This document shows, piece after piece, positions 23,929-48,036 of a stretch of DNA of 64,000 nt. The translations under genes were made by a program, and so were the position numbers. The DNA is from Planctomycetota bacterium (GTDB taxonomy: Bacteria > Planctomycetota > Planctomycetia > Pirellulales > UBA1268), in contig JAGWVR010000005.1 of the NCBI GenBank assembly GCA_018970785.1, forward strand, positions 6,067 through 70,066. Direction: 5' to 3'. Below the pieces are notes generated by a model. It saw nothing but the letters and a program-made list of their open reading frames with translations. It was not told the DNA's origin and did no database searches. How positions within the stretch are numbered: the first letter of the stretch is position 1; each line of letters starts with the position of its first letter.

Positions 23929-23973
23929 CGGCCCGGCGCCGCTCCCCTCTCCCCCCGTTCGCGAAACGTCGAC

Positions 23974-26779: not shown

Positions 26780-26789
26780 GGGAGGGCTG

Positions 26790-27041
26790 ATGGCCGAAAT
26801 CGTCGACCTCGTCCGCGACGCCCTGTGGACGGTGCTGCTGGTCGGCACGCCACTGCTGCTGGTCGGCCTCCTCGTCGCGCTGTGCGTCGGGGTCGTGCAG
26901 ACCGCCACCGGAATCCACGAGCCGCTCCTGGCGCTCGTCCCGCGGCTGGCGGCGATGGCGGCGGTGCTCATGATCACCCTCCCCTGGATGGTCGAACGAC
27001 TCGTCGATCTGGTCCTCCACGCCGCGCGGTCCCCCCACTGA
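26790..27041 (+). CDS. fliQ: Type III export gate protein FliQ/SctS
   Basis: 83-aa two-TM hairpin protein. 'LLLVGLLVALCVGVVQTATGIHEPLLALVPRL' matches the FliQ family pattern. Lies between fliP and fliR. Confidence 0.85.
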   Translation: MAEIVDLVRDALWTVLLVGTPLLLVGLLVALCVGVVQTATGIHEPLLALVPRLAAMAAVLMITLPWMVERLVDLVLHAARSPH

Positions 27042-27056
27042 TCCCCTCCAGGCGGC

Positions 27057-27839: not shown

Positions 27840-27860
27840 TCCGGAGCGGCGGAAGTCGCC

Positions 27861-28598
27861 ATGGAAGCCACGAGCACCGACCGGAGCCTGCCCCCGACGC
27901 CGCGGCGCCGTGAAGCCGCGCGCCGGGCCGGGATGATTCCCGGCGCTGCCGCGCCGGCCTGGGGCGCGTCGTGCCTGGTCACGGTCCTGCTGCTGCCGCG
28001 CTGGCTGGAGGGCACGCTCGCCGCCGGAGCCGATCTGCTCCGTGACATCCTGCCCGCCGTGCTCCGCGGCGAGCCGCTGCTGCCGTACGCTGCCGCGGTG
28101 GTCGTGCTCGCCCGGCCGACGATTCTCCTGGCGCTGGCCGCGTCGGCCGCCGGGATCGCCGTCCAGATCGCCTGGGACGGCCTCGTGTGGGAGCCGGCGC
28201 GGGTCTCGTTCCAGGTCGGTCGGCTCGCCCCGTGGGCGCGGCTCGCCCAGATCGCCTCCACCGACACGCTCCGCCAGATGCTGGCGACGACGGTCGTACT
28301 CGTCGCGCTGGCGGGCACGGCGGTGTGGTCACTCCGGGCGCTGCTGGTCGGCCTTGCCGGCGACGGGGCCTCCGCGGCCGGCGGCCTCGAGGCCGCCTGG
28401 CGGGCAGCGGCGGCCGTGACGGTCGCGGCGGCCCTGGCCGCGGTCGTGGGGTTCGTGTTCGCGCGGCGCCGCGCCGAAGCCCGCCTGTGGATGACGCCCG
28501 AGGAGTTTGCCGCCGAGCAGCGGACCCTGGAGGCGGGCAAGCGCGTCCGGTTCCACCTCCGTGGCGGCGGTGCCCCTCATGCCTCCGGCGGACGGTAA
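27861..28598 (+). CDS. flhB: FlhB/SctU transmembrane domain only (C-terminal autocleavage domain absent)
   Basis: N-terminus 'SLPPTPRRREAARRAGMIPG' matches the FlhB 'TE.PTP.R..ARKKGQV' motif. Four TM segments. Ends at aa 245 just after the linker 'WMTPEEFAAEQRTLEAGKRVR'. No NPTH region. The 3' end overlaps the convergent sulfotransferase gene by 22 nt. Confidence 0.7.
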   Translation: MEATSTDRSLPPTPRRREAARRAGMIPGAAAPAWGASCLVTVLLLPRWLEGTLAAGADLLRDILPAVLRGEPLLPYAAAVVVLARPTILLALAASAAGIAVQIAWDGLVWEPARVSFQVGRLAPWARLAQIASTDTLRQMLATTVVLVALAGTAVWSLRALLVGLAGDGASAAGGLEAAWRAAAAVTVAAALAAVVGFVFARRRAEARLWMTPEEFAAEQRTLEAGKRVRFHLRGGGAPHASGGR

Positions 28599-31582: not shown

Positions 31583-33256
31583 TCAGTCGCCGGCCGACTT
31601 CCGCCCGGTGAGGAGATCGAAGGCCCCGATCGCCGGCACGAGCAATGCCGTCGTCGCGAACCCGTAGGCGACGAGGACCACCAGCAGCACTTGGAGGCTG
31701 TTGCCCTGGAGAAATCCGGTGATCGCCACGAAGGTCAGTGCCGGGAGCAGCGCCGACGCCCAGGCGATCGCCGCCGACGGATTGCGCGCCGACAGCGCCG
31801 CGTACAGGCCGACCGCACCGCCGACGATCACGGCGAGGAACGGCGCGAGCTGGAGTTCGAAGCTCGTGTCGAAGGCGACCATGATCCGCATCGCCGTCGC
31901 CACGCCGATGAACAGGAAGGCGACCGTCCCCAGCGCGACCGCGATCGCCTGCCGCGACGACGTGTAGGACAGCCCGACGTGGAAGCCGAGGACGGCGACG
32001 AAAAACACCAGCGCGGCCATCCCGGCGGCGAGGTACAGGGCGTGTTCGGCGGTGGTGATCCCCGTGACCGCCATCACGGCGCAGGTCGCCAGCGGCAGGA
32101 GCACCATCTCCCGGGCGACGACGAGCACCCCGATCAGCTTCCCCCAGACGAATTCCTTCGGCTCCAGGTCGCTGACCAGCAGCAAGTCGAGCGCCCCGCG
32201 ATCGCGTTCGGTGGTGATGCTGGTGACCGCCAGAGCCGCCACGGCGACGAGGCTGGCCAGCGCCATCGGGATGACGGCGATCGCGACCGCGAGGCGGTCG
32301 GGGCGCGGCGAGCCGGCCTCGCGCAGGATGCCCGCCACGGCGACCGCGAACAGTGCCAGCCAGGCCAAGCGCACGAGGATCAGCATCCGCCCGTAGGCGC
32401 GGGTGCAGGTCTCACGCCACAGGATCGGGTTCCGCCACACCCGCCGCGCGGGGCGGAAGGCTGCCGCCTCGCGTTCGGCGGTCGCCGGGAGCCGTTGCTC
32501 GCGGGCGACGTTCCAACGGCGCAGGCAGGCCACTGCCACGGCATTGGCCCCGATCACGATCGCGGCACAGATCCCGAGGAACGGCGCCAGGGTCCGGCCG
32601 CCGTCGGGCGCCAAGGCGGCGAACACCGCCCGGGCCGGTGACACCGCCGCACCGGCGTCGGGCCCGCGTGTCGCGGCGAGGGTCTCTCCCAAGGCGGTCC
32701 AGGTCGCGAGCAGGAACAGCGTGATCGACAGCGTCTGGAAGGTGGTGTCCTTCCAGAAGGCGACGGTCGTGGCGATGCTCGCGGCAGTCAGCGCCGCTGC
32801 CAGCGTGACCACGAACAGCCGGACGAGTTGCGGCATCGTGACCCCGCCGAACAGCGAGGTGATCGCGAACATCGGCACCGCGGCCAGCAGCAGCAGCACG
32901 ACCCGCACCAGGCTCCCGGCGAGCTTGCCGAGGACCAACTCGCGGTCGGTGAGTCGGCTGACGAGGAGCAATTCGAGCGTCCGCCGGTCCTTTTCGGTGC
33001 TCACCGCGACCGCGGCGGCCAGCGCGGCGGCGAGGATCGCCAGGGCGAGCTGGAGCGGCCCGAGGATCCGCAGCAGGGTCGCGCCGAATCGGGCCGTGTC
33101 GCCGGCGGTCGACACCGACTGGGTCCCGGTGACGACCAGCCAGCAGGTGGCGATGATCGCCAAGAGCGCGCCGCAGTACACCGCCCGGGCGACGAACAGG
33201 CCGCGGGCCCGGGGCGCGACGGTCACCTCGCGTTCGAACACCGCGCCGAGCAGCAT
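31583..33256 (-). CDS. ABC-2 type transporter permease, internally duplicated
   Basis: Two homologous six-TM halves, each carrying the ABC-2 motif: 'EKDRRTLELLLVSRLTDRELVLGKL' and 'ERDRGALDLLLVSDLEPKEFVWGKL'. Confidence 0.75.
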   Translation of the reverse strand: MLLGAVFEREVTVAPRARGLFVARAVYCGALLAIIATCWLVVTGTQSVSTAGDTARFGATLLRILGPLQLALAILAAALAAAVAVSTEKDRRTLELLLVSRLTDRELVLGKLAGSLVRVVLLLLAAVPMFAITSLFGGVTMPQLVRLFVVTLAAALTAASIATTVAFWKDTTFQTLSITLFLLATWTALGETLAATRGPDAGAAVSPARAVFAALAPDGGRTLAPFLGICAAIVIGANAVAVACLRRWNVAREQRLPATAEREAAAFRPARRVWRNPILWRETCTRAYGRMLILVRLAWLALFAVAVAGILREAGSPRPDRLAVAIAVIPMALASLVAVAALAVTSITTERDRGALDLLLVSDLEPKEFVWGKLIGVLVVAREMVLLPLATCAVMAVTGITTAEHALYLAAGMAALVFFVAVLGFHVGLSYTSSRQAIAVALGTVAFLFIGVATAMRIMVAFDTSFELQLAPFLAVIVGGAVGLYAALSARNPSAAIAWASALLPALTFVAITGFLQGNSLQVLLVVLVAYGFATTALLVPAIGAFDLLTGRKSAGD

Positions 33257-33483
33257 GCCGTGCTCCCGTTTGCCAACCCCGGGACGCTCCCCCGGATCTC
33301 TCGGCGGCCACGCCCTTGGCCAGGTTCCCACGCGTGCCGGTCCGGGCGAGGGTATCACAAAACGCCCCCCTGGTGACGCCTCCGGCCCGTGGCTCGTGGA
33401 CGGCGGGCGGAGGCTTGAGCCGGTGCCGGCAGCGTGTATCGTGACGGGTCCAACCTCCGTTCCGCCCGTAGGAGATCCTGCGA

Positions 33484-35443: not shown

Positions 35444-36295
35444 ATGGAACCGACGGCGTTGCTCGGAGTGGCGGCAGGCCTGCTGGTCGTGGGTGCGGCG
35501 CTCGTCGGGGCGTGGCGGGCCCGGGGCTCGACCGCCGTGCCGGCGTGTTGGTGGGCGGCGGCCGCGGGAGTGGCGCTGGCGATCGAGCGTTTCAACGCGC
35601 CCGGGGCCGATCCCGGCGCAGCGGCCTGCCGGCGGCTCGCCCTGGTCGCCCTCGGCGTCTGCCCGGCGCTCTCCCTGCTCGGTGCAAAGCGGCCGCAGCA
35701 CGGGGTCTGGCAGGCGATCGTCGCGACCGCCGCGGTCGTCATCGCGTTGCCGGCGGCGACCGCCGCGCTCGTCCGCCCGGGGACCGTGCCCGACGTCCCG
35801 GTCGTGCTCAGGGGGCTCGTGGCCGTGATGATCCTCGTCGGTTGGCTCAACCATGCCGCGACGCGTCGCGGCATGGCCGCGACGGCGATCGCGGGCGGTC
35901 AACTCCTCGTGGCGCTGCCCTGTCTGGTCGGTTTCGATGACCGCGGCGTGAGCGGGCAGCGCGACACGGCCGCGGCCCTCGTGATCGGGGTGGCGGCGAT
36001 GGCTGCGGCGGTCTGGCCTGCCCGCCGCGGCCTGCAACCGGTCGATGCCGCCTGGTCGGCATTTCGCGAGACGTTCGGCGCCGCGTGGGCACTGCGGGTG
36101 GCGGAGCGCGTCGATGCGGTCGGCCGCGAGCGGGGGTGGTCGCGGCGCCTCGGCTGGCGGGGCTGGGAGATGGCCGACGGCGGGGAAACGCCCGACGATG
36201 GCGACTCACGGCGCCTGTTCATGGCGCTTGTGCGCCGATTCGTCAGCGCCGGCTGGCTTTCACGCCATGGGCTCCCGCCCCGCGGCCGGTGGTGA
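35444..36295 (+). CDS. Hypothetical polytopic membrane protein
   Basis: Six or seven hydrophobic helices followed by a Trp/Arg-rich cytoplasmic tail. GC3-rich codons. No recognisable family. Confidence 0.55.
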   Translation: MEPTALLGVAAGLLVVGAALVGAWRARGSTAVPACWWAAAAGVALAIERFNAPGADPGAAACRRLALVALGVCPALSLLGAKRPQHGVWQAIVATAAVVIALPAATAALVRPGTVPDVPVVLRGLVAVMILVGWLNHAATRRGMAATAIAGGQLLVALPCLVGFDDRGVSGQRDTAAALVIGVAAMAAAVWPARRGLQPVDAAWSAFRETFGAAWALRVAERVDAVGRERGWSRRLGWRGWEMADGGETPDDGDSRRLFMALVRRFVSAGWLSRHGLPPRGRW

Positions 36296-36466: not shown

Positions 36467-36805
36467 ATGTCCGAAGAACCGCGCGTCGTCCCCCAGGCCC
36501 GTCCCGTCGGTGAGCCGATGCAGGTGCCCGTCGACGAGTCGCACATCGTCGCCACCTACGCCAACTTCTGCCGCGTCACCGGGACGCCGGAGGAACTGAT
36601 CGTCGACTTCGGCCTGAACAAGCAGGTTGCCGGCACGTCGCCCGAGACGATCCAACTGACGCAGAGGATCATCGTCAACTTCTTCACCGCCAAGCGTCTG
36701 GCCTACGCGCTCGGCATGGCTGTCCAGCGCTACGAGCAGGCGTTCGGCATGCTCGAGACCGACGTCCAGAAGCGGGTCGTCCACCAACAGGTGACGAAGG
36801 CCTGA
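36467..36805 (+). CDS. DUF3467 family protein
   Basis: 'IVATYANFCRVTGTPEELIVDFGLN' and 'RIIVNFFTAKRLAYAL' match the DUF3467 pattern (YAN...TPEEF.LDFG). Confidence 0.7.
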   Translation: MSEEPRVVPQARPVGEPMQVPVDESHIVATYANFCRVTGTPEELIVDFGLNKQVAGTSPETIQLTQRIIVNFFTAKRLAYALGMAVQRYEQAFGMLETDVQKRVVHQQVTKA

Positions 36806-37073
36806 CGCGGGAGCCGGTCAGCGTGGGCCCCTCGATGGTCGGGGTCCCGTGATCGGCGTCACGGCTTCCGGCAGGCCGTCGGCGGCGCGGGCCTCGCGGT
36901 ACCGCGCCGCCCGACGGCGTGCGCCCGGGCCGCACATTTCGCGGTGACCGCCGTACCATTGGGATATCCTGGGAACCGTCCGTCGTCCTCCGGCGCCGCC
37001 CGTAGCCGGGGGTGGCTTCCACCCCGGGCGGGTGGCATCCGGCCGGCGGTCCTTGCGGAGGGTGGTGGATCGC

Positions 37074-39167
37074 ATGAGTACCGTAGACCGACACGTCGTC
37101 GAGGAGTCGCGGCAGCAGATCCGAGCGATCATCGGCGAAATCGACCAACTCGGCCGGACCGACATCGCCGAGGCCGACTTCTTCCGGGGTGTCCTCGACC
37201 GGGTGATCGAGGCGATGGGGGCCGTCGGCGGGCTGGTGTGGCTCGTCGGCGACGAAGGACGCTGCGAACCGATCTGCCACGCCGGGATTCCCGCCACCGG
37301 CTTGGCGCAGTCGAACGAGGCCCAGGAATCGCACGGCCGGCTCGTCCAGTCGCTGCTGACCGCACCGCACGGGATGCTCGTTCCGGCCCGGGCCAGCCTC
37401 GCGGGCCCCGATGGCAAGGCGATCGCCGACAACCCGACCGACCTGCTGGTGATCGCGGCCCCGCTCGACAAGAGCGGGGCGCGGGCGGGGCTGGTCGAGG
37501 TCTTCCACCACCACAACCAACCGGAGGTCGAGCAGGGCTACCTGGTGTTCGTCGACCAGGTGGCGGGCGTCGCCAGTGGCTATCTCGTCCGGCGCCAGGT
37601 CAAGGCCCTCGACAGCCAGCAGGCGGCGCTCGTGCAGGTCGACCGGTTCAGCCGGCAGGTTCACGAGTCGCTCGATCCGGTCGCCACCGCCTTCATCCTC
37701 GCCAATGAGGCCAGGCGGATCATCGGCTGCGATCGGGTCAGCGTGCTGGTGCGCCGCGGCCGCCGCCTCCGGCTCGAGGCGGTCAGCGGCCAGGAATCGG
37801 TCGAGCGTCGCGCGACCGCGGTCCAGGCGATCGAGGCCCTGGCGCGGGTCGTCGCCCGGGCGCGGGAAGCGCTCTGGCATCCCGATCCGGCGCGTGAACT
37901 GCCGCCACAGATCGAGGAGGCGCTCGAGCAGTCGATCGACGAATCGCACGCCACGAGCCTGGCGATCATCCCGCTGGTCCGGCCGCGCAAGACCCCGGTC
38001 GTCAAGCCCGGCGGAGTCGACGCCGTCGCGGTCGCCAAGGCCGAGACCGTGCCCCCGGCCGACGTCGGCGCCGAGCCGATCGGCGTCCTCGTCGCCGAGT
38101 GGTTCACGTCGAGCACGTTCGACGGCGGACGGAAGGCGCGGGTCGAGGTGTGCGCCGAGCATGGCAGCATCGCGCTGGCCAACGCATTGGACCACACCGG
38201 GCTGCCGCTGTTTCCGGTCGTCGATCTCCTCGGCCGGTCGCGCGTGCTGACCAGCGCCCGCAACCTGCCGCGGACGGTGCTCGCCGGCCTCGCTGCCCTG
38301 GCGACGGTGGCCGCATTGGTGTTCATCCCGGCCGAACTGCGGCTCGAGGGGAAGGGCACGCTCGAGCCGGTCCGCAAGCGCGACGTCTTCGCCGGCGTCG
38401 ACGGCGTCGTCAAGGAGATCGCGCCGGGGATCGTCCACGGCGCCGAGGTCCGCCAGGGTCAGCTCCTCCTCACGCTCCGCAACACCGATCTTGAAGTCGC
38501 CCTCACCGACGTCCTTGGGCGGAAGGCGTCGAGCGAGGAGCAGTTGGTCTCGACGCGCCGGGCGCTTCTCGAGGACAAGCGGATCTCGGCCGACGAGCGG
38601 ACCCGGATGCAGGGGCGGGCCGCGCAGCTCCAGCGCGAGATCGAGAGCCTCGACGCCCAGCGGAAGCTCTACGAAAGCAAAAAGCGGGAGCTCGACGTCG
38701 CCAGCCCGATCGACGGCCAGGTCGTGACGTGGCAGGTCGCCGACCGGCTGCTGCTGCGCCCCGTCGAGAAGGGGCAGGTGCTGCTCACCGTCGCCGACAA
38801 GCAGGGGCCGTGGGAGCTCGAGCTCCACCTCCCCGACGACCGGCTCGGCCATGTCAACGCCGCCGCGGCCGCGGCGAAGCAGGCCGGGCGTGAGTTGGAG
38901 GTCGACTACATCGTCGCCACCGACCCCGGCACCCGGCACCGTGGCACCGTCAAGGAGATCCACGAGCAGGCGGAGGTCCGTGGAGAGAGCGGCAACGTCG
39001 CCCTGGTGCGCGTGACGATCGACCCGTCGGACCACGACCGCGAGGAGCTCGGTGCCGGAGCGACGGTGACGGCGCGGATCGCCTGCGGCCGGCGCTCGCT
39101 GGGGTACGTCTGGTTTCACGACGTCCTCGCCTTCATCCAATCGCAGGTCTTGTTCCGGCTTTTCTGA
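37074..39167 (+). CDS. Tandem-GAF sensor fused to a TM helix and a HlyD-type periplasmic adaptor domain
   Basis: About 400 cytoplasmic residues with two GAF-like modules ('AMGAVGGLVWLV..' and 'IIGCDRVSVLVRRG..LRLEAVSG'). TM helix (TVLAGLAALATVAALVFIPA). Then a HlyD-like lipoyl/coiled-coil/beta-barrel pattern ('GVDGVVKEI..V..GQLLLTL', long heptad region, 'VASPIDGQVVTW'). Confidence 0.75.
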   Translation: MSTVDRHVVEESRQQIRAIIGEIDQLGRTDIAEADFFRGVLDRVIEAMGAVGGLVWLVGDEGRCEPICHAGIPATGLAQSNEAQESHGRLVQSLLTAPHGMLVPARASLAGPDGKAIADNPTDLLVIAAPLDKSGARAGLVEVFHHHNQPEVEQGYLVFVDQVAGVASGYLVRRQVKALDSQQAALVQVDRFSRQVHESLDPVATAFILANEARRIIGCDRVSVLVRRGRRLRLEAVSGQESVERRATAVQAIEALARVVARAREALWHPDPARELPPQIEEALEQSIDESHATSLAIIPLVRPRKTPVVKPGGVDAVAVAKAETVPPADVGAEPIGVLVAEWFTSSTFDGGRKARVEVCAEHGSIALANALDHTGLPLFPVVDLLGRSRVLTSARNLPRTVLAGLAALATVAALVFIPAELRLEGKGTLEPVRKRDVFAGVDGVVKEIAPGIVHGAEVRQGQLLLTLRNTDLEVALTDVLGRKASSEEQLVSTRRALLEDKRISADERTRMQGRAAQLQREIESLDAQRKLYESKKRELDVASPIDGQVVTWQVADRLLLRPVEKGQVLLTVADKQGPWELELHLPDDRLGHVNAAAAAAKQAGRELEVDYIVATDPGTRHRGTVKEIHEQAEVRGESGNVALVRVTIDPSDHDREELGAGATVTARIACGRRSLGYVWFHDVLAFIQSQVLFRLF

Positions 39168-39266
39168 CCCCGTCTCCGACACGGTGAATCAGTGGTCCGC
39201 GTGCGTGTCATCCCCGTGCCGCCGTCGTCCCGGCGAGCAGCCCCCGTCGCCGGAGTGAGCTCCCCC

Positions 39267-40307
39267 ATGGCCCGACCTCCCGTCCGCCGATCGGCCGCAC
39301 GGATCGCTCCACTGGCGGTGATCGCGTTGGCCCTCGCACCCGCGTTGCCAGGGGCGGCGAACGCCGCTGATCCGCCAACGCCGCGTCCGCGGTCGGTCGA
39401 GACGGAGTCGCCGGCGAACGAACCGATCCTCTCCAACTGCCTGGTGTCACTCGTCGAGGAGGCCAAGGTGCCCGCCCGCGAGGCCGGTGTCCTCGTCGAC
39501 CTGGTGATCCGCGAGGGGGACACGGTCGCCCGCGGGGCGGTGATCGCCCGGATCGACGACAGCCAGCCGCAATCCGACCGCCGCAAGGCCCGCGCCGAGT
39601 ACGAGCAGGCGGTGGCCAAAGCGGAGAACGACGTCGACATCCGCTACGCAGTCGCCGCCAAGGACGTCGCCGAAGCGGAATTGGAGAAGGCGATCAATGC
39701 CAACCGCACGTCGCCTGGGGCGATCACCGAGATCGACATCTATCGCCTCCGACTCAACCAGCAGAAGAGCGAACTGTCGATCGAGCAGGCCCGCCTCGAG
39801 CAGCGGATCGCCGGCCTGACCGCGACCGCCAAGCAGGTCGAGGTCGAGGCCGCCGGCGACGCCATCGCCCGGCGGTTGATCACCGCGCCGCTCGACGGCG
39901 TCGTCGTCGAGGTGTTTCCGCACCGTGGGGAGTGGATGCAGCCGGGTGATCCCCTCGCCAGGGTCGTCCGTGCCGACACGCTCCGTGTCGAGGGCTACGT
40001 CAATTCGGCGCGGCACGATCCCGCGGCGGTCCGCGACCGGCCCGTGACGGTGGACATCACGCTCGCCGACCAGCGCGTCGAGACGTTCCCCGGGCGGATC
40101 GTGTTCACCAGCCCGATCGTCGAGTCAGGGGGGGAGTATCGGGTGTGGGCCGAAGTCACCAATCGGCTCGCGTCCGATGCCGGTACGTGGCTGATGCGCC
40201 CCGGTCAGACGGCGCGGATGACGATCCATTCCAACCAGCCGCCGCTGCCGCCGGTGCGCCGCGAGGTCGCCGCCCCGGTCGACGACGCCGCGCCCGCGGC
40301 GCGCTGA
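39267..40307 (+). CDS. HlyD-family membrane-fusion (periplasmic adaptor) protein
   Basis: Signal peptide (IAPLAVIALALAPALPGAANA). 'VPAREAGVLVDLVIREGDTVARGAVIARID', a coiled-coil hairpin, and 'ITAPLDGVVVEVFPHRGEWMQPGDPLARVV'. Confidence 0.8.
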   Translation: MARPPVRRSAARIAPLAVIALALAPALPGAANAADPPTPRPRSVETESPANEPILSNCLVSLVEEAKVPAREAGVLVDLVIREGDTVARGAVIARIDDSQPQSDRRKARAEYEQAVAKAENDVDIRYAVAAKDVAEAELEKAINANRTSPGAITEIDIYRLRLNQQKSELSIEQARLEQRIAGLTATAKQVEVEAAGDAIARRLITAPLDGVVVEVFPHRGEWMQPGDPLARVVRADTLRVEGYVNSARHDPAAVRDRPVTVDITLADQRVETFPGRIVFTSPIVESGGEYRVWAEVTNRLASDAGTWLMRPGQTARMTIHSNQPPLPPVRREVAAPVDDAAPAAR

Positions 40308-40323
40308 CGACCGGAGGCGTCCG

Positions 40324-42558
40324 ATGTCGACCGCCGCCGACGCCTTCCGGTCGAGCACGACGCGCGCCATCGGCCTGCGGCGCCGTGGCGATCTGGTCGC
40401 CAACCGGCAGATCCACCAGGGGCAGGCCTGGTGGGTGGTGAAGGATCCGATCTCGTTGGCCTACTACCGTTTCCGCCCCGAGGAGTACGCGCTGCTCGAG
40501 ATGCTCGACGGCCGGGTCAGCCTGGAGACGCTCCAGGCGCGCTTCGAGGAACGGTTCCCGCCGCGGCGGATCGGGCTCGACGAACTGTCGCGGTTCATTG
40601 CCACCCTCCACCGGTCCGGGCTGGTGATCGGCGACCGCTCCGGCCAGGGGCCGCAGCTCTTCGAGCGCCGCCGGCAGCGGCTCTGGCGGCAGTGGCAGGC
40701 GTGGCTGGCGAACATCATGGCGATGCGGTTCCGGGGCATCGACCCCGACCGCCTCCTCGCCCGCCTCGATCCGCTGTTCGGCTGGCTGTTCGAGCCGCCG
40801 GCGATCGCCGCGATGCTGGTCCTGGTCGCGTCGGCGGTCGGCCTGGTGCTGGTGAACTTCGACGAGTTCCGCAGCCGGCTGCCGGCATTCAACCAGTTCT
40901 TCGCCTCGGGCAACTGGATCTACCTCGCGGCCGCGCTGGCGGTGACGAAGGTGATCCACGAGTTCGGCCACGGGCTGTCGTGCAAGCACTACGGCGGTGA
41001 GTGCCACGAGATGGGGGTGATGCTCCTGGTGTTCACGCCGTGCCTGTACTGCGACGTCTCCGACAGCTGGATGCTGCCGAGCAAGTGGAAGCGGGCGGCG
41101 ATCGGCGCCGCCGGGATGTACGTCGAGCTGATCATCGCCTCGATCGCCACGTACCTGTGGTGGAATTCCCACGCCGGCACGTTCAACCAGTTGTGCCTCG
41201 ACGTGATGTTCGTCTCCAGCGTGTCGACGATCCTGTTCAACGCCAATCCGTTGATGCGCTACGACGGCTACTACATCCTCTCCGACGTCCTCGAGATCCC
41301 CAACCTCCGCCAGAAGGCGACGTCGATCCTCGGCCGGTTCGCCAGCCGGTGGTGCCTGGGGATCGAGCAGCCCGAGGATCCGTTCCTCCCGACGCGCAAC
41401 CGTTGGGCGTTCGCCGCCTACGCCGTGGCCAGCAGCCTGTATGGCTGGCTGGTGACGGCGTCGATCTTCTTGTTCGTGTGGAACGTCTTCAAACCGTACC
41501 GCCTCGAGATCATCGGGCAGGTGCTCGCCGCCGGCGCGCTGTGGGGTTTGGTGGTCCGCCCGGTGCATGGGATGATCAAGTTCCTCAGCGTGCCCGGGAG
41601 GCGCGACGAAGTGAAATCCCGCAATCTCCTCGCTACCGCCGCCGCCGCCACCGCGGTCGTCGCGGCGTTGGGGCTGGTGCCCTTGCCGCACCGCGTCTGG
41701 TGCCCGGTCGAACTGCGGCCGCGTGGCGAGGAGACGGTGTACGTCGCGGTCGCGGGCCGGCTGGAGAGCGTCGCGGTCCGCCCCGGCGACCGCGTGAGCC
41801 GCGGGCAGGAGGTGGCGCGGCTGGCGAGCGTCGATCTCGACTTGGCGATCGCCGATCTCGAGGGGCGTGCGGCCCAGCAACGCACCCGGCTCGAGAGCCT
41901 GCGCCGCGAGCGGTTCGAGGATCCGGCCGCGGGCCTCGAGGTCGGGACCGCCGAGGAGACGCTCGCCAGCCTCGAGGAGCAGCTCGAGGAGAAGCAGCGC
42001 GACCGCCGCGATCTGATCCTCGTCGCTCCGCGCGACGGCGTCGTCCTGCCGGCGCCGGTGGTGGCGGCCCCGCCGCAGGATGCCGACCGGCTGCCGTCCT
42101 GGAGCGGGCACGTCCTCGACGAGGCGAATCTCGGTGCCATGCTGGCGGAGGGCACGGTGCTGTGCCACGTCGGCGAGGCCGGCATCCTCGAGGCGGCGCT
42201 CGTCGTCGACCAGTCGGAGATCGAGTTCATCGCCCGCGGGCAGCCGGTGGAGATGAAGCTCGATGCCTTGCCATGGCGCACGCTCGGCGGCACCGTCGAG
42301 GAGGTGGCGGTCATGCAGCTCTCCGCGGGTGCGGAGCGCCTCAGCGTCAAGGCGGGTGGTCAGGTGCCGACGCAGACGGACGCCGCCGGCCGCGAGCAGC
42401 CGATCTCCACCAGCTACGAGGCGCTGGTCCACCTCGACGACGGCGACGGGCTGCTGACGCCCGGGATGCGCGGCACGGCACGGATCCGCGTCGGTGGCCG
42501 CACCGTGGCGCAGTGGCTGTTGCGCCTGCTCTGGCAGACGTTCAACTTCCGGATGTGA
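40324..42558 (+). CDS. M50 (site-2 protease-like) zinc metalloprotease fused to a HlyD-type adaptor domain
   Basis: HExxH 'HEFGH' in a TM helix (40957-40971). Second M50 motif 'NANPLMRYDGYY'. The C-terminal third has a HlyD-like lipoyl/coiled-coil pattern ('VAVAGRLESVAVRPGDRVSRGQEVARL', 'LVAPRDGVVL'). Confidence 0.8.
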   Translation: MSTAADAFRSSTTRAIGLRRRGDLVANRQIHQGQAWWVVKDPISLAYYRFRPEEYALLEMLDGRVSLETLQARFEERFPPRRIGLDELSRFIATLHRSGLVIGDRSGQGPQLFERRRQRLWRQWQAWLANIMAMRFRGIDPDRLLARLDPLFGWLFEPPAIAAMLVLVASAVGLVLVNFDEFRSRLPAFNQFFASGNWIYLAAALAVTKVIHEFGHGLSCKHYGGECHEMGVMLLVFTPCLYCDVSDSWMLPSKWKRAAIGAAGMYVELIIASIATYLWWNSHAGTFNQLCLDVMFVSSVSTILFNANPLMRYDGYYILSDVLEIPNLRQKATSILGRFASRWCLGIEQPEDPFLPTRNRWAFAAYAVASSLYGWLVTASIFLFVWNVFKPYRLEIIGQVLAAGALWGLVVRPVHGMIKFLSVPGRRDEVKSRNLLATAAAATAVVAALGLVPLPHRVWCPVELRPRGEETVYVAVAGRLESVAVRPGDRVSRGQEVARLASVDLDLAIADLEGRAAQQRTRLESLRRERFEDPAAGLEVGTAEETLASLEEQLEEKQRDRRDLILVAPRDGVVLPAPVVAAPPQDADRLPSWSGHVLDEANLGAMLAEGTVLCHVGEAGILEAALVVDQSEIEFIARGQPVEMKLDALPWRTLGGTVEEVAVMQLSAGAERLSVKAGGQVPTQTDAAGREQPISTSYEALVHLDDGDGLLTPGMRGTARIRVGGRTVAQWLLRLLWQTFNFRM

Positions 42559-42590: not shown

Positions 42591-43439
42591 ATGGCCGATC
42601 CGGACGGGATCCTCGGACGGATCACGATCTACCCGGTGAAGAGCCTCGACGGCATCGACATCGACGACGCGCTGGTGCAGGAAGGCGGCAGCCTCGCCGG
42701 GGATCGGCGCTGGCGGCTGGTCGATCTCGACGGGCGCGTCGTCAATGCCAAGCGCACCCCCCGGCTCCATGGCGTCCGGGCCGCGTTCGATCTCGACGCG
42801 CGGCGGGTCCGGCTGGAAGTCGACGCGGCTGCCGACCTGCCGCCGCGTTGCCGGGCCACCGCCGAGGAGTTTCCGCTCGTGCCCGGGGAGGCCGGGCCCT
42901 GTGCCTGGTTGAGCGCCGTCCTCGCCATGCCCGTGCTCCTCGAGGAGCGCGTGGAGGGCGGGTTTCCCGACGATCGCGATGCCCCCGGGGCGACGGTCGC
43001 CGCCGCCGCCACGCTCGACGCCGTGGCGGAATGGTTCCGCCTGCCCCACGCCGAGGTGCGGCGCCGGTTCCGCGTCAACCTCGAGGTCGTCGGCCCGGCG
43101 CCGTTTTGGGAAGACGCGCTGGCCTGCCCGGCTGCGGCCGACGCGTCCGGCACGCTCGCTGACCGGCCTCCGGCGGAACCGCGGCGGTTCGCCGTCGGAG
43201 GCCAGACCTGGTTGGCGACGGGCGTCTGCCGCCGCTGCCCCGTGCCGACCCGCGACAGCGCCAGCGGCCGCGACGACGGGTTGTTCCGCGCCGCCTTCGA
43301 ATCGCGCCGGCGGGTGAGCCTCCGCGGCGACGTCGATGCCGCCTCGTGGGGGCACCTCTACCGCCTCGCCATCAACACCCGCGGGCTGTCGGGTCCAGGG
43401 CCGATCCGCCGTGGTGACGCGGTCTGCGTCCTGCCGTGA
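42591..43439 (+). CDS. MOSC domain protein (MOSC_N beta-barrel plus MOSC)
   Basis: 'ITIYPVKSLDGIDIDDALV..GGSLAGDRRWRLVD' is the MOSC N-terminal barrel motif. C-terminal conserved Cys context 'CRRCPVPTRD'. Confidence 0.8.
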   Translation: MADPDGILGRITIYPVKSLDGIDIDDALVQEGGSLAGDRRWRLVDLDGRVVNAKRTPRLHGVRAAFDLDARRVRLEVDAAADLPPRCRATAEEFPLVPGEAGPCAWLSAVLAMPVLLEERVEGGFPDDRDAPGATVAAAATLDAVAEWFRLPHAEVRRRFRVNLEVVGPAPFWEDALACPAAADASGTLADRPPAEPRRFAVGGQTWLATGVCRRCPVPTRDSASGRDDGLFRAAFESRRRVSLRGDVDAASWGHLYRLAINTRGLSGPGPIRRGDAVCVLP

Positions 43440-43451
43440 CCCTGCGGGGCA

Positions 43452-45782
43452 TCACTGCGGCGGCACCGGGACGAACAGGGCGGGATCGTAGATCGGCTGC
43501 GGCGGGATGTACGTGATGTCGTCCCAGGTGAACTGGCCGGGGACCTCGAAGATCCTCGCGTTGTTGTTGATCGCACTGAGGTTCGTGCTGTCGCTGGCCT
43601 TGATGTAGATCTCGCCGAAGCTCGGATCGTAGACGACGATGTCGGGATCGGCGGCCGTGATCACGCCCCAGGCGGCGCCGGTGTTGGTGAGCCGGATCGT
43701 GCCACCGCTGGTCGTCGTATCCTTGCCGGCGACGAGCCGGTTGCCGACGAGGTTGGCGTTCACGATCGCCCCCACCTGGTCGGCGACCGACAGGCTGATG
43801 CCGTCGCCACCGCTGACGGTGCCGATGCGGTTGTCGGTGAGCGTGATGTCGAGCGTCTCGGCACCGTTGGCGAAGCCGTTGACCCCGATCGTCTCGCCGA
43901 TGAATTCCGAGTTGGCCACCTGGACCACCGAATTGCCGGTGGCGCTGACACCGGCGTTGCCATTGGTCTCGAATGTCGTCTGGAAGACCGCCAGCTGCCC
44001 GCCCTCGACCGTGATCCCGGCCGCCGAGGAGTTGCTGATGCTGGAGTTGGTGACGTAGACGCGGCCGTCGTTGTACAGGTCCTTGATATAGATTCCCGAG
44101 TTGGTGTTCCCGTCGAACGTCGAGTTCGTGACGTTGACCTTCGGGTCGCCGCCGGCACTGGTGATCACCGCCAGACCGTCGTTGGTCATGTTGGTGACGG
44201 AGAGGTTTGAGAAGTTGAACTGGGCATTGCCGCCGGCGAGATCCTGGATGAGGATGCCGCGCTGGTTGGGGCCGCTGCCGATGAGCCGGACGTCGTTGAC
44301 GATCGTGTAGCTCCCGGCCGGCAGCCCGGCGCCGTCGGAGATGCCGATCGCGCTGCCGGTGACCTCGAGGTGGTCGACCACCGACCCGGCGGCGAGCGTG
44401 ATCGCCGTACCGGCACCGTTGGCGAGGACCGGATACTCCGCTCCGGGTGTGTTGCCCCACAGCGGCACCAGCCCGCAGGTCGTCGTCGGCACCCGCATCG
44501 CCGTGCCCTGGCCGACGAGGAATTGATTGGCGGCCGCGAACGTGTAGCCGCCGGTGTACGGAGTGACCGCGCTGACGCCCTGGTGGACGAAGACGATGTC
44601 GTACGGGAGCGTCGCCACCGCCTGGGCACCGGCCAGCGACGAGACCGGCGCTTCGGCGGTGCCCGTGCCGCCGGCGGCGACCGAATTGTCGACGTGGATC
44701 ACGCGCCACGGGCTGCCGGTGAGCGGATTGATCGCCTGGCGGGCCGGCTGGTAGGCGCGGACGATGTGCTCGTTGCGCATCATCGGCTGCTCCATCTGGT
44801 CGGCCACCGTGCGGCGCCGCGATCCGCCCATCCGGTAGGTGAGGCGGGCGAAGCCGGTCCAGTCGAAGTAGCTGTCGTTGTTGGCCTGGAGGGAGAAGTC
44901 CCAGTTGTCGAGGAACGTCATGTCGAGACGGGTGTAGACGCCGCCGAAGTAGGGGACGACGTCTTGGCCCCCAGGCACGTTGTAGCGGGCATTGCCGAAG
45001 GTGTAGCCGCCGACGCTCACCATGCCCGCCCAGTCAGACAATCCCGGGACGTAGGCGCCGACCTCGAGGTCGGCACCGGCGAGGGCGGCCGTGATCCCGA
45101 GGTCGCACAGCAGCGAGCTGCCGACGTACGGGCCACTCACCGACGCGGTGCTGCCGACGGGGATGTAGCCGTTGCTGCGCAGATTGCCCCAGTCGGTGAG
45201 GAACTCGCCAGACACACCGACCTGGTTGTAGGACTGTCCGCCATTGGCGACGTAGGTTCCGGTGGAGTCGGTGATGATGCTGTCGGCATACATGTTCTCG
45301 TCGCCGTCGTAGTCCCAGTAGACGCCGACGCCCGCCAGCGCCCCGCCCCAGAACTGCTTGCGGACGAAGCCGACGTTGGAGAAGAAGCCGCCGTAATTGG
45401 ACAGATGGCTGCGGAGATCGGTCGCCCAGAATCCGCCGAGGTCGTCCTCGGCATACGGGATGAACGCCCCCAGGGTCATGTAGCTGCCCTGGTAGCCGAG
45501 GCCACGGTCGGCAGCGTTGAGGCCGTAATAGAACCAGCCGGGGCCGTTGGCGTTGAGGTTGCCGAATCCCGCCGCCGCGCGGTTGACGATGCCGCCGGCA
45601 GGGGCCATCGCCACCTGGCCGGTCTGCGCGCTGGCCCGTTCGGCGCCGCCGCCGACGAGCGCGAGGAGGAGGGCTGCAACCGCGCGCCGCCGCCGCCGGC
45701 GACGCTGCCGCTCCCGAGCCCCGGGGTTCTCCTGCCGCTCGAGGTCGACCGCGCTGGCCGGACCGAAATCTGCGGTGCTCAT
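43452..45782 (-). CDS. Inverse-autotransporter-like outer-membrane protein with right-handed beta-helix passenger
   Basis: Arg-rich signal peptide. N-terminal roughly 330-aa Gly/Tyr/aromatic beta-barrel-like domain whose motifs resemble the intimin/invasin beta-domain ('GVGVYWDYDGD', 'VGVSGEFLTDWGNLRSNGYIPVG', 'GADLEVGAYVPGLSDW'). C-terminal parallel beta-helix repeats ('VTNSSISNSSAAGITVEGG..', 'NGNAGVSATGNS'). Confidence 0.6.
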   Translation of the reverse strand: MSTADFGPASAVDLERQENPGARERQRRRRRRRAVAALLLALVGGGAERASAQTGQVAMAPAGGIVNRAAAGFGNLNANGPGWFYYGLNAADRGLGYQGSYMTLGAFIPYAEDDLGGFWATDLRSHLSNYGGFFSNVGFVRKQFWGGALAGVGVYWDYDGDENMYADSIITDSTGTYVANGGQSYNQVGVSGEFLTDWGNLRSNGYIPVGSTASVSGPYVGSSLLCDLGITAALAGADLEVGAYVPGLSDWAGMVSVGGYTFGNARYNVPGGQDVVPYFGGVYTRLDMTFLDNWDFSLQANNDSYFDWTGFARLTYRMGGSRRRTVADQMEQPMMRNEHIVRAYQPARQAINPLTGSPWRVIHVDNSVAAGGTGTAEAPVSSLAGAQAVATLPYDIVFVHQGVSAVTPYTGGYTFAAANQFLVGQGTAMRVPTTTCGLVPLWGNTPGAEYPVLANGAGTAITLAAGSVVDHLEVTGSAIGISDGAGLPAGSYTIVNDVRLIGSGPNQRGILIQDLAGGNAQFNFSNLSVTNMTNDGLAVITSAGGDPKVNVTNSTFDGNTNSGIYIKDLYNDGRVYVTNSSISNSSAAGITVEGGQLAVFQTTFETNGNAGVSATGNSVVQVANSEFIGETIGVNGFANGAETLDITLTDNRIGTVSGGDGISLSVADQVGAIVNANLVGNRLVAGKDTTTSGGTIRLTNTGAAWGVITAADPDIVVYDPSFGEIYIKASDSTNLSAINNNARIFEVPGQFTWDDITYIPPQPIYDPALFVPVPPQ

Positions 45783-46110
45783 GGCGCCTTGTTCCCGACG
45801 GTGGCCGGTTGTCCGGGCGGCAATGTCCCCGGTGAAGGTGCAACCGGCATGATCGTCAGGTGTGATCGACTCCCCGCCATGCGCACCATGAGCATTTCCG
45901 GGACAAAGCCCGGAACCGGTCGATCCCCCCCGGCCTGCCCCCTCCGCGCGGAAGCCGCGTCGTTCCTCTCCTGCGCCGGATCCGGCCGAAGTGAACCCCA
46001 GGGCGGTGGCGTGCGTACCCGGTGCTGGCGTCGTTTCGACCCCCGCGGTACGCTCAAAGCGGGAAAATGGGGCGTTTGCGCTGATCATTTGGGGAGAAGG
46101 GGAGGATTCC

Positions 46111-48036
46111 ATGCGTGCGAAACGGCAGCGTCGGCACCCGCGGCGGCAGACCGGAGTGGAATCCCTCGAGCCGCGTGTCGTGATGGACGTTTCGGCCGGC
46201 TGGTCCGATCCGGTCGCGGATGTCGGCCCCGGCGATGACTTCGGCAGCCAGGCCGCCGTCCCACCCGCCGCCGCCGTCCTCGCCCGGCCGACGACGTCGT
46301 TCGCTGCTTCGGCTGATTTCTCCTTCACCCAGATGGCGGCACCCCCAGCGGCGCCTCCGGGACTGAGCATGAGGGTCGCCGCCACGGTGATCCGCGGTTC
46401 GGCCGCCGCCTTCGAACTTACGCTGCCGGCGCCAGCCGGCGCCGCCGGCGCGAGCGTGTCCTACCGCACGGCCGACATCGGTGCGAAGGCGGGAATCGAC
46501 TACCAGGCGATGAGCGGACGGATCACGTTCGCCCCCGGTGAGCGTTTCAAGCAGGTCGCCGTGCCGACGATCGCCGGACTTCCTGCGGGAAGCAAACCGC
46601 TGACGTTCGCCGTGGTTCTCTCGGAGCCAGTCAACGTCAAGCTCAACTCGGCCCAGGCCGTGACGACGATCGTCACCCGTGCGCAGCAATTCAACCCCGT
46701 GTTCGGTTTCGGCTTGGTCAACGCGGCCGCTGCCGTCGCCCAGGCGTCGGGTCGGATCGAGCCGTTCGTCCAGACGCCCGATCTCGGTGGCAACGCCTGG
46801 GGGCAGGATCTCGTCAAGGCTCCCGAAGCCTGGGCACGCGGGTACACCGGCCGTGGCGTCACCGTCGCGGTGATCGACAGCGGTGTCGATTACACGCATC
46901 CCGATCTGGCGAGCAATATCTGGGTGAATGCCCGCGAGGTGCCCGGCGACGGCATCGACAACGACGGCAACGGCTACGTCGACGACATCCGGGGCTGGAA
47001 CTTCAACGGCAACGGCGGTCGCGGCAGCAACGACCCGATGGATGACGACGGTCACGGAACCCATGTGGCCGGCACGATCGCCGCCCTCCGCAACGGCATC
47101 GGCGTCACCGGCGTGGCTCCGGATGCCAAGATCATGCCGCTCAAGGTGAAGGATCCGACGTTCCCGACGTTCGACGACTACCACACGTCGGTCGCCAAGG
47201 CGATCCGCTACGCCGTCGACAACGGCGCCCGCGTGATCAACATGAGCATCCGCACGCTGCCCGAGGTCGGGCCGACCCTGTCGTTCGGCTCGCGCCCGGT
47301 GGCGGCGATCCAGGACGCCCTCGCCTATGCCGCGTCGCGCAACGTCATCGCTGTCGCCGCGGCAGGCAATTCCCAGGAGTCGGCGAGCTTTTTCGGCTAC
47401 CCCGAAATCGCCGCGTCGCCGCTCTATCCGGCAGCGTACTCGACAATGTACGGCCTGTCGGTGGGCGCGGTGGACTACCAGGGGATGATTGCCTCGTTTT
47501 CCAACTACGCCAGTAATTCGCCGACGCAGCACCAGGTGATGGCCCCCGGCGTCGAGGTCTACTCGACGTTTCCCCGTGGTACCTACGAGTACCTCAGTGG
47601 GACGTCGATGGCCTCGCCGCATGTCGCCGGCGTCGTGGCGCTGATGGTCGGAGCCAATCCGCGGATCACGTCCAACCAGGTGCGCTCGATCGTCCCCAAC
47701 ACGTCGCAGCGGCTGCTCGGCACGATCATCACGGCCCGGCCCACGAAGGCCGCGTCGCTCCCCTTGTTGGCGGCAGCCAGCGGCCTGGATCAACCGATCT
47801 GGGTCGTGCCCGGCAGCGCGGCCCGGGGGAGTGACCGGGTCCGCGTGTTGGCGACGGCGCCTGTCGCGGCCCCGGCGCCCGCCGCCGCCGCTCTCCCGGC
47901 GTCGGCCTTCGCCGCGCTGGGGGCCGACGAGCCCAGTGCCGCCCGTCGGTCGCGGGGTGCGTCGGCGGTGGACCCGGAGGCTCCAGCGGTCGCCGGCGGA
48001 GTCGCGGTCCATGTCGGGGCCGGCCTGCCCGGCTGA
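46111..48036 (+). CDS. Subtilisin-family (S8) serine protease with Calx-beta domain
   Basis: Catalytic triad motifs 'VAVIDSGVDYTHPDL', 'HGTHVAGTIAA' and 'GTSMASPHVAG'. Calx-beta-like 'GIDYQAMSGRITFAPGERFKQVAVP'. N-terminal 'RR..VESLEPRVVM' motif. GGAGG-rich RBS upstream of ATG-46111. Confidence 0.88.
   Translation: MRAKRQRRHPRRQTGVESLEPRVVMDVSAGWSDPVADVGPGDDFGSQAAVPPAAAVLARPTTSFAASADFSFTQMAAPPAAPPGLSMRVAATVIRGSAAAFELTLPAPAGAAGASVSYRTADIGAKAGIDYQAMSGRITFAPGERFKQVAVPTIAGLPAGSKPLTFAVVLSEPVNVKLNSAQAVTTIVTRAQQFNPVFGFGLVNAAAAVAQASGRIEPFVQTPDLGGNAWGQDLVKAPEAWARGYTGRGVTVAVIDSGVDYTHPDLASNIWVNAREVPGDGIDNDGNGYVDDIRGWNFNGNGGRGSNDPMDDDGHGTHVAGTIAALRNGIGVTGVAPDAKIMPLKVKDPTFPTFDDYHTSVAKAIRYAVDNGARVINMSIRTLPEVGPTLSFGSRPVAAIQDALAYAASRNVIAVAAAGNSQESASFFGYPEIAASPLYPAAYSTMYGLSVGAVDYQGMIASFSNYASNSPTQHQVMAPGVEVYSTFPRGTYEYLSGTSMASPHVAGVVALMVGANPRITSNQVRSIVPNTSQRLLGTIITARPTKAASLPLLAAASGLDQPIWVVPGSAARGSDRVRVLATAPVAAPAPAAAALPASAFAALGADEPSAARRSRGASAVDPEAPAVAGGVAVHVGAGLPG

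Follow-up and report, generated by a model that had tools for sequence, protein, structure and literature searches.

What do three consecutive genes for HlyD-type membrane-fusion proteins (MFPs) do in a locus that encodes no pump? The question is raised by positions 36467-42558 of a 64,000-nucleotide stretch of planctomycete DNA (GCA_018970785.1, contig JAGWVR010000005.1; the whole stretch is referred to here as the window), in which four co-directional genes encode a DUF3467 protein and the MFPs g1, g2, and g3, the last fused to an M50 metalloprotease. An earlier reading, made from the sequence alone, proposed a machine for the proteolysis-coupled release or export of a small secreted peptide. 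Comparison with relatives in other bacteria indicates that the genes probably encode a dedicated export apparatus lacking an ABC transporter, which would cleave the leader of proteins carrying an N-terminal LEPR signal. The module is probably the missing export and processing machine of LEPR proteins because, in other bacteria, it lies beside giant proteins that begin with this signal. The window is ~71% G+C, and its genes were assigned from GC3-guided open reading frame (ORF) calling and translations. The core genes and the parts of g3 are as follows.

36467-36805, + strand: DUF3467 protein, 112 aa (PF11950, E 1e-20); cytoplasmic, with neither transmembrane (TM) helix nor signal peptide
37074-39167, + strand: g1, GAF-TM-HlyD membrane-fusion protein, 697 aa (ATG start; alternative GTG start at 37032)
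39267-40307, + strand: g2, plain periplasmic HlyD/MFP adaptor, 346 aa (ATG start; alternative GTG start at 39192)
40324-42558, + strand: g3, three-part RRE-M50-HlyD fusion, 744 aa (NCBIfam, Pfam, AlphaFold2 plus Foldseek)
40366-40638, + strand: g3 residues ~15-105, cytoplasmic PqqD/RRE-like leader-binding domain, predicted from fold
40741-41688, + strand: g3 residues ~140-455, M50/site-2 protease (S2P) intramembrane metalloprotease, with HEFGH at 40957-40971
41689-42555, + strand: g3 residues 456-744, periplasmic HlyD adaptor (HlyD_D23, TIGR01843)

The translated ORF coordinates reproduce the spacing given in the sequence-only reading: 99 nt between g1 and g2, 16 nt between g2 and g3, and 32 nt between g3 and a downstream MOSC gene. 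Position 36467, which that reading gave as the start of the trio, is the start of the DUF3467 gene and not of the first adaptor. Searches with Pfam and NCBIfam profiles bore out an HlyD domain in each of the three proteins, including the first and third, on which the earlier claim had been staked. The matches were to TIGR01730 in g1 (E 2e-15, residues 432-688), HlyD_3 (E 2e-12) and TIGR01730 (E 1e-25) in g2, and HlyD_D23 (E 4e-10) and TIGR01843 (E 5e-14) in g3. All three are MFPs of the lipoyl/barrel/hairpin type with TM anchors, as in the type 1 secretion system (T1SS). Hydropathy places residues 1-415 of g1 in the cytoplasm, followed by one TM helix (416-434, GTG numbering) and then, in the periplasm, an adaptor part that bears a coiled-coil hairpin; in g2, an N-terminal signal peptide or anchor (..ALAPALPGAANA/AD..) precedes the MFP. 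Two GAF domains had been read in g1. One of these (residues ~218-381) is a family-wide feature, being matched at E <= 0.01 in 20/22 family members (best 5e-13) and under the Pfam threshold in the window protein (18.9 vs. 22.4 bits). The second, at the N terminus, fared less well and is suggested by an hhalign comparison with the first GAF domain (P = 0.007) and by a best PDB sequence match to a GAF protein (E 0.16).

The M50 metalloprotease assigned to the third gene was upheld by profile, motifs, and fold. The Pfam match to Peptidase_M50 is barely past threshold (28.3 vs. 27.2 bits), and the protein contains the HExxH and NxxPxxxxDG motifs of the M50/S2P family. Across 24 homologs that share 35-51% identity, HEFGH (residues 212-216), D247, and N306-x-N308-P309-x4-D314 do not vary, and G315 is nearly constant. 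Hydropathy and an AlphaFold2 (AF2) model agree on a cytoplasmic N terminus, ~7 TM helices, and a periplasmic MFP. In the model of residues 1-474 (pLDDT 85, pTM 0.78), an N-terminal sheet and three helices lead into the membrane protease. The top Foldseek match in the PDB was the S2P of M. jannaschii (3b4r, probability 1.0). RRE-leader complexes (TbiB1, lasso B1) and PqqD were also matched (probability 0.99-1.0, with TM-scores of 0.61-0.68 that are normalised to the target), and the strands and then helices at model residues 18-97 have the RRE arrangement of a three-stranded sheet and a three-helix winged helix. Pfam detects PqqD in 5/24 homologs and in the Methylosinus protein, not in the window protein, and several proteobacterial members are named "PqqD family" in RefSeq. 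This predicted PqqD/RRE leader-binding domain at the N terminus of the M50 fusion had been overlooked in the sequence-only reading, which did point to an analogy with YydH. That analogy is backed by NCBIfam matches to daptide_HExxH (NF041824; residues 32-421, E 1e-56, 192.7 bits vs. a cut-off of 300) and to YydH/LiaK (NF058609; E 6e-13, 49.1 bits vs. 225), both below the curated cut-offs. By sequence, no solved close relative of g3 was found.

The g3 fusion has >6,000 homologs in a 90%-identity collection, the top 120 of which are 73-99% identical and ~743 aa long. An exhaustive HMMER search (E <= 1e-30) returned 4,566 clusters at 50% identity, and the best 150 of these are nearly all full-length fusions of ~700-760 aa. 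Eighty Planctomycetota loci were fetched, their ORFs were labeled by phmmer, and gene order was counted in the 56 with at least 3.6 kb of upstream sequence. The order g1-g2-g3 is kept in 48/56 loci at 40-77% identity, and two more have g2 and g3 only, so g2 is present in 50/56. The trio is beyond chance, because its gene order is conserved in those 48 related loci. DUF3467 adjoins the trio in 15/43 informative planctomycete loci, directly 5′ of g1 or directly 3′ of g3; the 5′ position is found in orthologs of the window locus and the 3′ position in the group of 40-50% identity. The planctomycete modules fall into at least three groups: with DUF3467 upstream, with DUF3467 downstream and with or without a SecA-like gene, and with no DUF3467. 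In four cases (L059/L077, L017/L038, L031/L057, and L014/L069), two paralogous M50-MFP modules were found on different contigs of a single metagenome-assembled genome.

In nine of the 80 planctomycete loci, a truncated SecA paralog (693 aa; 470-500 bits to its proteobacterial counterpart) lies immediately beside the trio. A predicted porin of the BBP7 family (PF07585, E 2e-80) is divergent from the SecA-like gene in six of these nine.

L020 2521-4038, - strand: BBP7 porin (PF07585); also in L026, L030, L034, L046, and L073

The BBP7 porin is a candidate outer-membrane partner in Planctomycetota where no TolC was found nearby. Searches with two TolC seeds, which divergent outer-membrane factors could escape, gave no match in the window or in 82 planctomycete loci.

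More distant relatives were collected by tblastn of g3 against plasmids, and later also from the SecA paralog. Full-length g3-type fusions are present in Alpha-, Beta-, and Gammaproteobacteria, and 14 proteobacterial contexts were read. No ABC, RND, or MFS pump lies inside any of these modules. A gene for a giant protein adjoins 12/14 (genes of 7 to 38.7 kb; proteins of up to ~12,900 aa), a SecA-like gene is adjacent in 7/14, and TolC is present in 6/14. In seven loci (type A: Methylosinus, two in Pseudosulfitobacter, Rhizobium beringeri, Pontibrevibacter, Mesorhizobium ciceri, and Rhodobacteraceae M382), the typical layout is giant gene, DUF3467, GAF-MFP, RRE-M50-MFP, SecA-like, and often a short MFP, with slight variations in order; DUF3467 is found in 6/7, and TolC and SapC once each. 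Five contexts (type B: E. coli/Citrobacter, Azospirillum brasilense, Eleftheria, Niveispirillum, and Kosakonia) contain a giant gene, TolC, a short MFP, an MFP of ~450 aa, and M50-MFP, with a different order in Eleftheria and no ATPase. In Tistrella the giant gene is 4 kb downstream of the module, and in Azospirillum B510 the g3-type fusion is solitary. The proteobacterial g1 counterparts combine GAF (E 5e-13) with HlyD_3 (E 2e-19). Orthology of the proteobacterial modules is argued from architecture, DUF3467, the SecA paralog, and gene order; pairwise BLASTP of g1 and g2 gives HlyD-level similarity only.

One example is on E. coli plasmid pABWA45_1 (118682-138427; likewise Citrobacter p6_A; L086/L087/L090), where a block of five genes is bounded by the insertion sequences IS5 and IS1. 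It encodes a 4,457-aa Ig-like/DUF4347 protein, TolC, two MFPs, and M50-MFP. The giant gene and the transport genes each occur, at >=99% identity, in 24/5,426 complete genomes of E. coli, for the most part on IncF-type plasmids, and human isolates are among the carriers.

The proteobacterial SecA paralog (~638-674 aa) matches SecA_DEAD (E 1e-103), SecA_PP_bind, and P-loop_SecA, and aligns only to the first ~550-600 of ~790 positions of the SecA profile. It has therefore kept the motor and preprotein-binding domain (NBD1-PPXD-NBD2) and lost the C-terminal third (finger and wing). A reverse test that began from this paralog recovered GAF-MFP, RRE-M50-MFP, and SecA-like genes in 4/4 new loci, DUF3467 in 3/4, and an annotated giant gene alongside 3/4. 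The paralogs are called "prepilin peptidase," "DEAD/DEAH box helicase," "translocase," or "SecA"; the first of these names is used in RefSeq for L083 10168-12084 and L084 11516-13540 (WP_244635385.1 and WP_114295152.1). Such conflicting names mean that the family is annotated inconsistently, and RefSeq labels on the neighboring transport genes include "HlyD family efflux transporter," "PqqD family protein," "DEAD/DEAH box helicase," and "prepilin peptidase."

Several proteobacterial loci contain further genes at or near the module. In Pseudosulfitobacter, a SapC-family gene lies between the M50-MFP and SecA-like genes (L084 10702-11523). A 2026 preprint (bioRxiv 10.64898/2026.03.19.712371) reports sapC and tolC on either side of Cag_663/665, giant proteins of Chlorochromatium said to "lack known signals"; these could belong to the same kind of system. 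On a Kosakonia plasmid, three successive "tail fiber protein" genes of ~225 aa each lie directly 3′ of M50-MFP (L098 16624-18731). A CusA/CzcA RND pump with its own adaptor is divergently oriented 5′ of the giant LamG gene on Methylosinus pMSC49a (207803-212553; L093 1804-5001); this is the only pump seen within 5 kb of any module and appears to be a separate heavy-metal efflux operon.

The giant neighbors share an N-terminal signal, in which a basic stretch is followed by LE[PSA]R-x-[LMFV]-[LMF]-[SDN]-[AG]. Examples are ..MEALEPRFLLSAD, ..DTLEPRVLLNAD, MALEPRFMFDAAG, ..ALEARLMFDAAA, ..FALESRQLFDGAA, ..ALEPRMMFDAAG, and ..SLEPRMLFDGA. The LE[PSA]R motif was present in 8/8 giant-protein N termini checked, seven of which were read directly and that of Pontibrevibacter by its RefSeq name, LEPR-XLL. 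Two giant proteobacterial neighbors matched NF012209 (LEPR-XLL) at 31-33 bits (cut-off 17), and the Pseudosulfitobacter protein and several planctomycete proteins matched PF07595 (Planctomycete extracellular) below threshold (E 3e-5 to 0.06). The leaders have neither a Sec-type hydrophobic core nor a TM segment. The same motif, described as RRLxxExLExRxLLA, was found on 52 proteins of Tuwongella, including 8 of its 10 longest, and was presumed to be a novel export signal, with no machinery named (PMC8567305); as cited there, it was first reported by Studholme et al. 2004. The likely substrate is not the small peptide envisaged in the sequence-only reading: conserved genes for a precursor or its modification are missing around the module, and what recurs beside it is a giant or large surface protein with the LEPR-XLL/Planc_extracel signal.

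One gene in the 64-kb window has such an N terminus.

46111-48036, + strand: S8 subtilase with a Calx-beta domain, 641 aa, candidate substrate with a LEPR-like N terminus

The gene lies ~3.5-3.6 kb 3′ of g3, and its product begins MRAKRQRRHPRRQTGVESLEPRVVMDVSAG (also given as MRAKRQRRHPRRQTGVESLEPRVVMD), with a basic stretch and then the LEPR motif (nt 46165-46188), and without a hydrophobic Sec-type core. The protein gave no match to PF07595. Its score against NF012209 (E 0.15, 11.7 bits) is under the cut-off of 17, and the assignment of a LEPR signal is therefore probable and not proven. Elsewhere in Planctomycetota, the gene after MOSC in the orthologs L001-L003 encodes a protein of 1,731-2,129 aa that starts ..RRSRRRRGREAGLLAESLEKRQLLAV, and a motif protein comes directly after DUF3467 in L020 and L036. 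Counted over the planctomycete trios, eight motif genes start in the 460 kb within 4 kb of a trio and three in the 389 kb at 4-10 kb. The Tuwongella genome was taken to be ~6.7 Mb, an assumed size. With it, the 52 genes reported there give a background of ~0.8 motif genes per 100 kb. The resulting enrichment of ~2-fold within 4 kb fits many dispersed clients per genome and is no proof of linkage. The linkage of module and client is strong in Proteobacteria and only marginal in Planctomycetota.

DUF3467 is the only small gene that recurs with the module. Its possible membership in the unit had been raised before and is borne out by adjacency (15/43 planctomycete loci, as above, and 6/7 type-A modules). 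The protein has 40 columns that are invariant among 38 sequences, and its AF2 model (pLDDT 74) consists of three strands and a long helix. Foldseek found no match to the model in the PDB at E <= 0.001, and a profile search against PDB sequences returned nothing. A SecB-like chaperone for the SecA paralog was considered and rejected, with no SecB among the 50 Foldseek matches listed. DUF3467 is the fourth conserved component, perhaps an adaptor or chaperone.

Other genes around the module in the window are as follows.

31583-33358, - strand: ABC-2 permease, the sole transporter-like gene, 3.7 kb from g1, without an ATPase partner
35444-36295, + strand: 283-aa polytopic membrane protein with ~6-7 hydrophobic segments and no family match
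42591-43439, + strand: MOSC_N-domain protein (PF03476, E 6e-16), 32 nt 3′ of g3

In phmmer searches of the 64 kb with the seeds used, no ABC ATPase, SecA-like, TolC, or BBP7 ORF was found; the earlier statement that neither pump nor TolC is encoded nearby therefore holds, with the lone ABC-2 permease on the opposite strand. MOSC, which had been suggested as a member of the unit, accompanies only the closest orthologs (>=69% identity; L001-L009 group) and is not core. The same range holds for the 283-aa membrane protein, a TPR protein, and the ABC-2 permease; all four were rejected as components, their conservation being confined to these orthologs and therefore local synteny. The 283-aa protein is directly 5′ of DUF3467 in nine close orthologous loci only, gave no Pfam, NCBIfam, or PADLOC match, and is of uncertain relation to the system. 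In L001 and L002, an ABC ATPase and an ABC-2 permease are inserted between the 283-aa gene and DUF3467 (L001 4351-6320), and a HicB-like antitoxin gene between g3 and MOSC (L001 12335-12580); the flanks are thus plastic, and the four core genes stay together. Promoter and terminator scans for operon boundaries gave nothing beyond shuffled expectation, and a role in anti-phage defense was rejected after none of six proteins matched PADLOC.

Otherwise the window consists of core chromosome, with a cytochrome oxidase cluster and genes for malate dehydrogenase, flagellar/T3SS-type export, an MCP, and a Ser/Thr kinase. By its best hits, the DNA belongs to Planctomycetota, near Pirellulales. The export-apparatus genes form a run 8 kb 5′ of the module (23929-28598, + strand) in the order YscJ/FliF-like, long FliP, a 101-aa ORF, FliR-like, and FlhB-like; the FliP is unusually long (481 aa), with its FliP domain confined to residues 276-473. 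A gene between MOSC and the S8 gene (43452-46385, - strand) encodes a protein of 977 aa that has a Sec-type signal (RRRRRRAVAALLLALVGGGAERASA). The N-terminal region of this protein is rich in aromatic residues and glycine and resembles a beta-barrel of the outer membrane, and its C-terminal part is a right-handed beta-helix (PF13229). In layout the protein is similar to an inverse autotransporter; it is absent as a conserved gene from the orthologous loci.

How might the module work? DUF3467, g1, g2, and g3 would form an envelope-spanning inner-membrane and periplasmic core without an ABC, RND, or MFS pump, and its clients would be proteins that start with a basic stretch and then LE(P)RxLL and have no Sec-type hydrophobic core. 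The cytoplasmic RRE domain of g3 would bind the N-terminal leader, as suggested by its fold and its homology to RiPP leader-binding domains (RiPP, ribosomally synthesized and post-translationally modified peptide). The M50 site would then cut the leader off on the cytoplasmic side of the membrane, to judge from its invariant motifs and its homology to daptide and YydH peptidases. The three different coiled-coil-hairpin adaptors may form a periplasmic duct to an outer-membrane channel, for which the candidates are TolC in cis (six proteobacterial modules) and the BBP7 porin (some planctomycete loci), with nothing comparable in the window. Threading could be driven by the truncated SecA paralog where it is encoded in cis; elsewhere, host factors, the proton-motive force, or Ca2+-dependent folding outside the cell might supply the energy, and both proposals are speculative. 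The Ca2+-binding repeat domains of the clients could act as an extracellular folding ratchet. The GAF domains of g1 and DUF3467 may provide a cytoplasmic platform for docking, chaperoning, or regulation; that a ligand gates the machine through GAF, as the sequence-only reading had it, is speculative. The window would represent a variant without a cis SecA-like or outer-membrane gene, with the S8/Calx-beta protein encoded downstream as its candidate client. The complete proposal is of a new type of secretion system, ranging from Planctomycetota to E. coli plasmids, in which an RRE reads the LEPR leader, an MFP-fused S2P removes it, and a three-adaptor duct leads to TolC or another channel, with no ABC transporter and with a truncated SecA supplying power where present. 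It would be the missing route for the planctomycete signal, and also for some of the largest proteins in bacteria, and we give this full version slightly less than an even chance. The idea of a pump-less, proteolysis-coupled machine from the sequence-only reading is supported, but the M50 domain need not be the sole inner-membrane partner, given that a SecA paralog and an outer-membrane channel (TolC or possibly BBP7) are linked to it in many relatives.

Several observations weigh against an export apparatus of this kind. Export, cleavage, and channel are all inferred from comparative genomics, and the window has no SecA-like, TolC, or BBP7 gene. The minimal proteobacterial modules lack any ATPase, which leaves the energy source and the inner-membrane channel unexplained, and no S2P fold is known to conduct proteins. 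The S8 protein scores below the LEPR-XLL cut-off, and the enrichment of motif genes at planctomycete trios is marginal and is not relied on as support. Between the phyla, g1 and g2 share mostly generic HlyD similarity (E ~1e-7). The M50-MFP gene is solitary in 6/56 planctomycete loci, as is one Azospirillum gene, and no role is assigned to DUF3467 or the GAF domains.

Three other explanations were weighed. The first is a RiPP-like or small-peptide machine, with the RRE-M50 part trimming a small precursor in the manner of daptide MpaP or YydH/LiaK and the adaptors handing the product outward. Two observations would suit it: the RRE is a hallmark of RiPP pathways, and in sequence the N-terminal half of g3 is closest to RiPP leader peptidases (NF041824 and NF058609). 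The NCBIfam scores are nevertheless far under the cut-offs (193 vs. 300 and 49 vs. 225 bits), and all-against-all clustering of flanking ORFs from 82 loci turned up neither a small precursor nor a modification enzyme, radical-SAM or other, that is conserved. The one small conserved gene, DUF3467, is nearly invariant, unlike RiPP precursors, and the constant neighbor in Proteobacteria encodes a giant protein. A small precursor ORF between DUF3467 and g1 was also rejected, since the orthologs leave just 30-85 nt there. A peptide machine is accordingly improbable. It is equally hard to see the three proteins as standard adaptors serving a conventional pump whose genes lie elsewhere, such as an ABC-2 exporter, with the M50 fusion as an accessory. 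Such a pump is hinted at by the ABC ATPase and permease directly 5′ of DUF3467 in L001 and L002 and by the ABC-2 permease ~4 kb upstream in the window and close orthologs. The ABC pair, however, adjoins the module in only 2/82 planctomycete loci. The upstream permease is encoded on the other strand with no ATPase to partner it, and its synteny extends only to the closest orthologs. None of the 14 proteobacterial modules contains a pump, nor does the IS-bounded five-gene E. coli block. The trio is thus not normally part of an ABC or RND efflux operon, so that the condition under which the sequence-only reading would have been refuted did not arise, and the chance that a distant pump explains it is very small.

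The third explanation, which we regard as unlikely, dispenses with export altogether and treats the module as a device for intramembrane proteolysis, quality control, or anchoring. The S2P would cut and release tethered LEPR proteins exported by other means, or an unrelated signaling substrate, and the MFPs would scaffold or sense the envelope. S2P proteases are classically signaling enzymes, the fold match is to 3b4r, GAF is a typical sensor module, and neither the window nor the minimal modules encode an ATPase. Transport is indicated, on the other hand, by TolC in six operons, by three distinct MFPs, and by a SecA paralog with a preprotein-binding domain. The clustering of flanking ORFs also found no sigma factor, anti-sigma factor, or other regulator conserved nearby, and the LEPR leaders lack the TM segment of classical S2P substrates.

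An export apparatus for LEPR proteins is best placed by comparison with known systems. It resembles T1SSs (HlyBD-TolC, LapBCE) in its MFPs, with cytoplasmic extension, TM helix, and coiled-coil hairpin, in the TolC of proteobacterial operons, and, as in T1SSs for giant adhesins and RTX proteins, in giant repeat clients with Ca2+-binding Ig-like, cadherin, VCBS, or Calx-beta domains. It differs in that the ABC transporter is missing and three distinct MFPs stand in the place of one, and in having a protease fused to an MFP, a SecA-like ATPase in many modules, and a client signal that is N-terminal and probably cleaved, whereas that of T1SSs is C-terminal and uncleaved. A functional analogy is offered by peptidase-containing ABC transporters (PCATs) that work with an MFP and TolC (for colicin V, CvaAB-TolC), in which a protease within the exporter likewise recognizes and cuts an N-terminal leader. 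The PCAT protease, however, is a C39 cysteine peptidase fused to the ABC protein, not an MFP-fused M50 intramembrane enzyme; leader recognition here would be by an RRE, and the clients are proteins of up to ~12,900 aa, not peptides. The closest proteins by sequence, daptide MpaP (NF041824) and YydH/LiaK (NF058609), share HExxH, NxxPxxxxDG, and an RRE-like N terminus, but g3 scores under their cut-offs, is fused to a 290-aa periplasmic MFP, has no precursor or modification genes, and is set among adaptors, DUF3467, and SecA-like genes. Site-2 proteases (3b4r, RseP, SpoIVFB) share the core fold and catalytic motifs, while g3 has no PDZ or CBS domain, has RRE and MFP domains instead, and lacks a sigma/anti-sigma context. 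The accessory SecA2 of Gram-positive bacteria, which serves large serine-rich adhesins, is comparable as a dedicated SecA paralog linked, in relatives of the module, to very large surface proteins; the module paralog is ~640-690 aa, has lost its C-terminal third, has no SecY2/Asp partners, and is absent from the window. The module is therefore neither a T1SS nor a PCAT, because it has no ABC transporter; it is not an efflux system, because it has no pump; not a RiPP pathway, because precursor and modification genes are missing and scores fall under the cut-offs; and not an S2P signaling system, because there is no regulatory context. Since each comparison fails on a defining feature, it would be a system of a new kind, assembled from parts already known. 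The Planc_extracel (PF07595) and LEPR-XLL (NF012209) families describe the client motif only, with no export machinery assigned in the searchable literature, and no description of the module was found in that literature, subscription-only journals excluded.

The RRLxxExLExRxLLA signal heads dozens of surface proteins per planctomycete genome, including most of the largest, and no machinery had yet been tied to it. It is now linked to a defined set of genes that is conserved and in part mobile, which makes the proposal testable, most simply with the plasmid block of E. coli. If the reading is correct, there would be a secretion route that dispenses with an ABC pump, an RRE that recognizes a protein leader outside RiPP biosynthesis, and a new role for each of two known components, the S2P protease and the SecA paralog, and the annotation of thousands of genes would be corrected.

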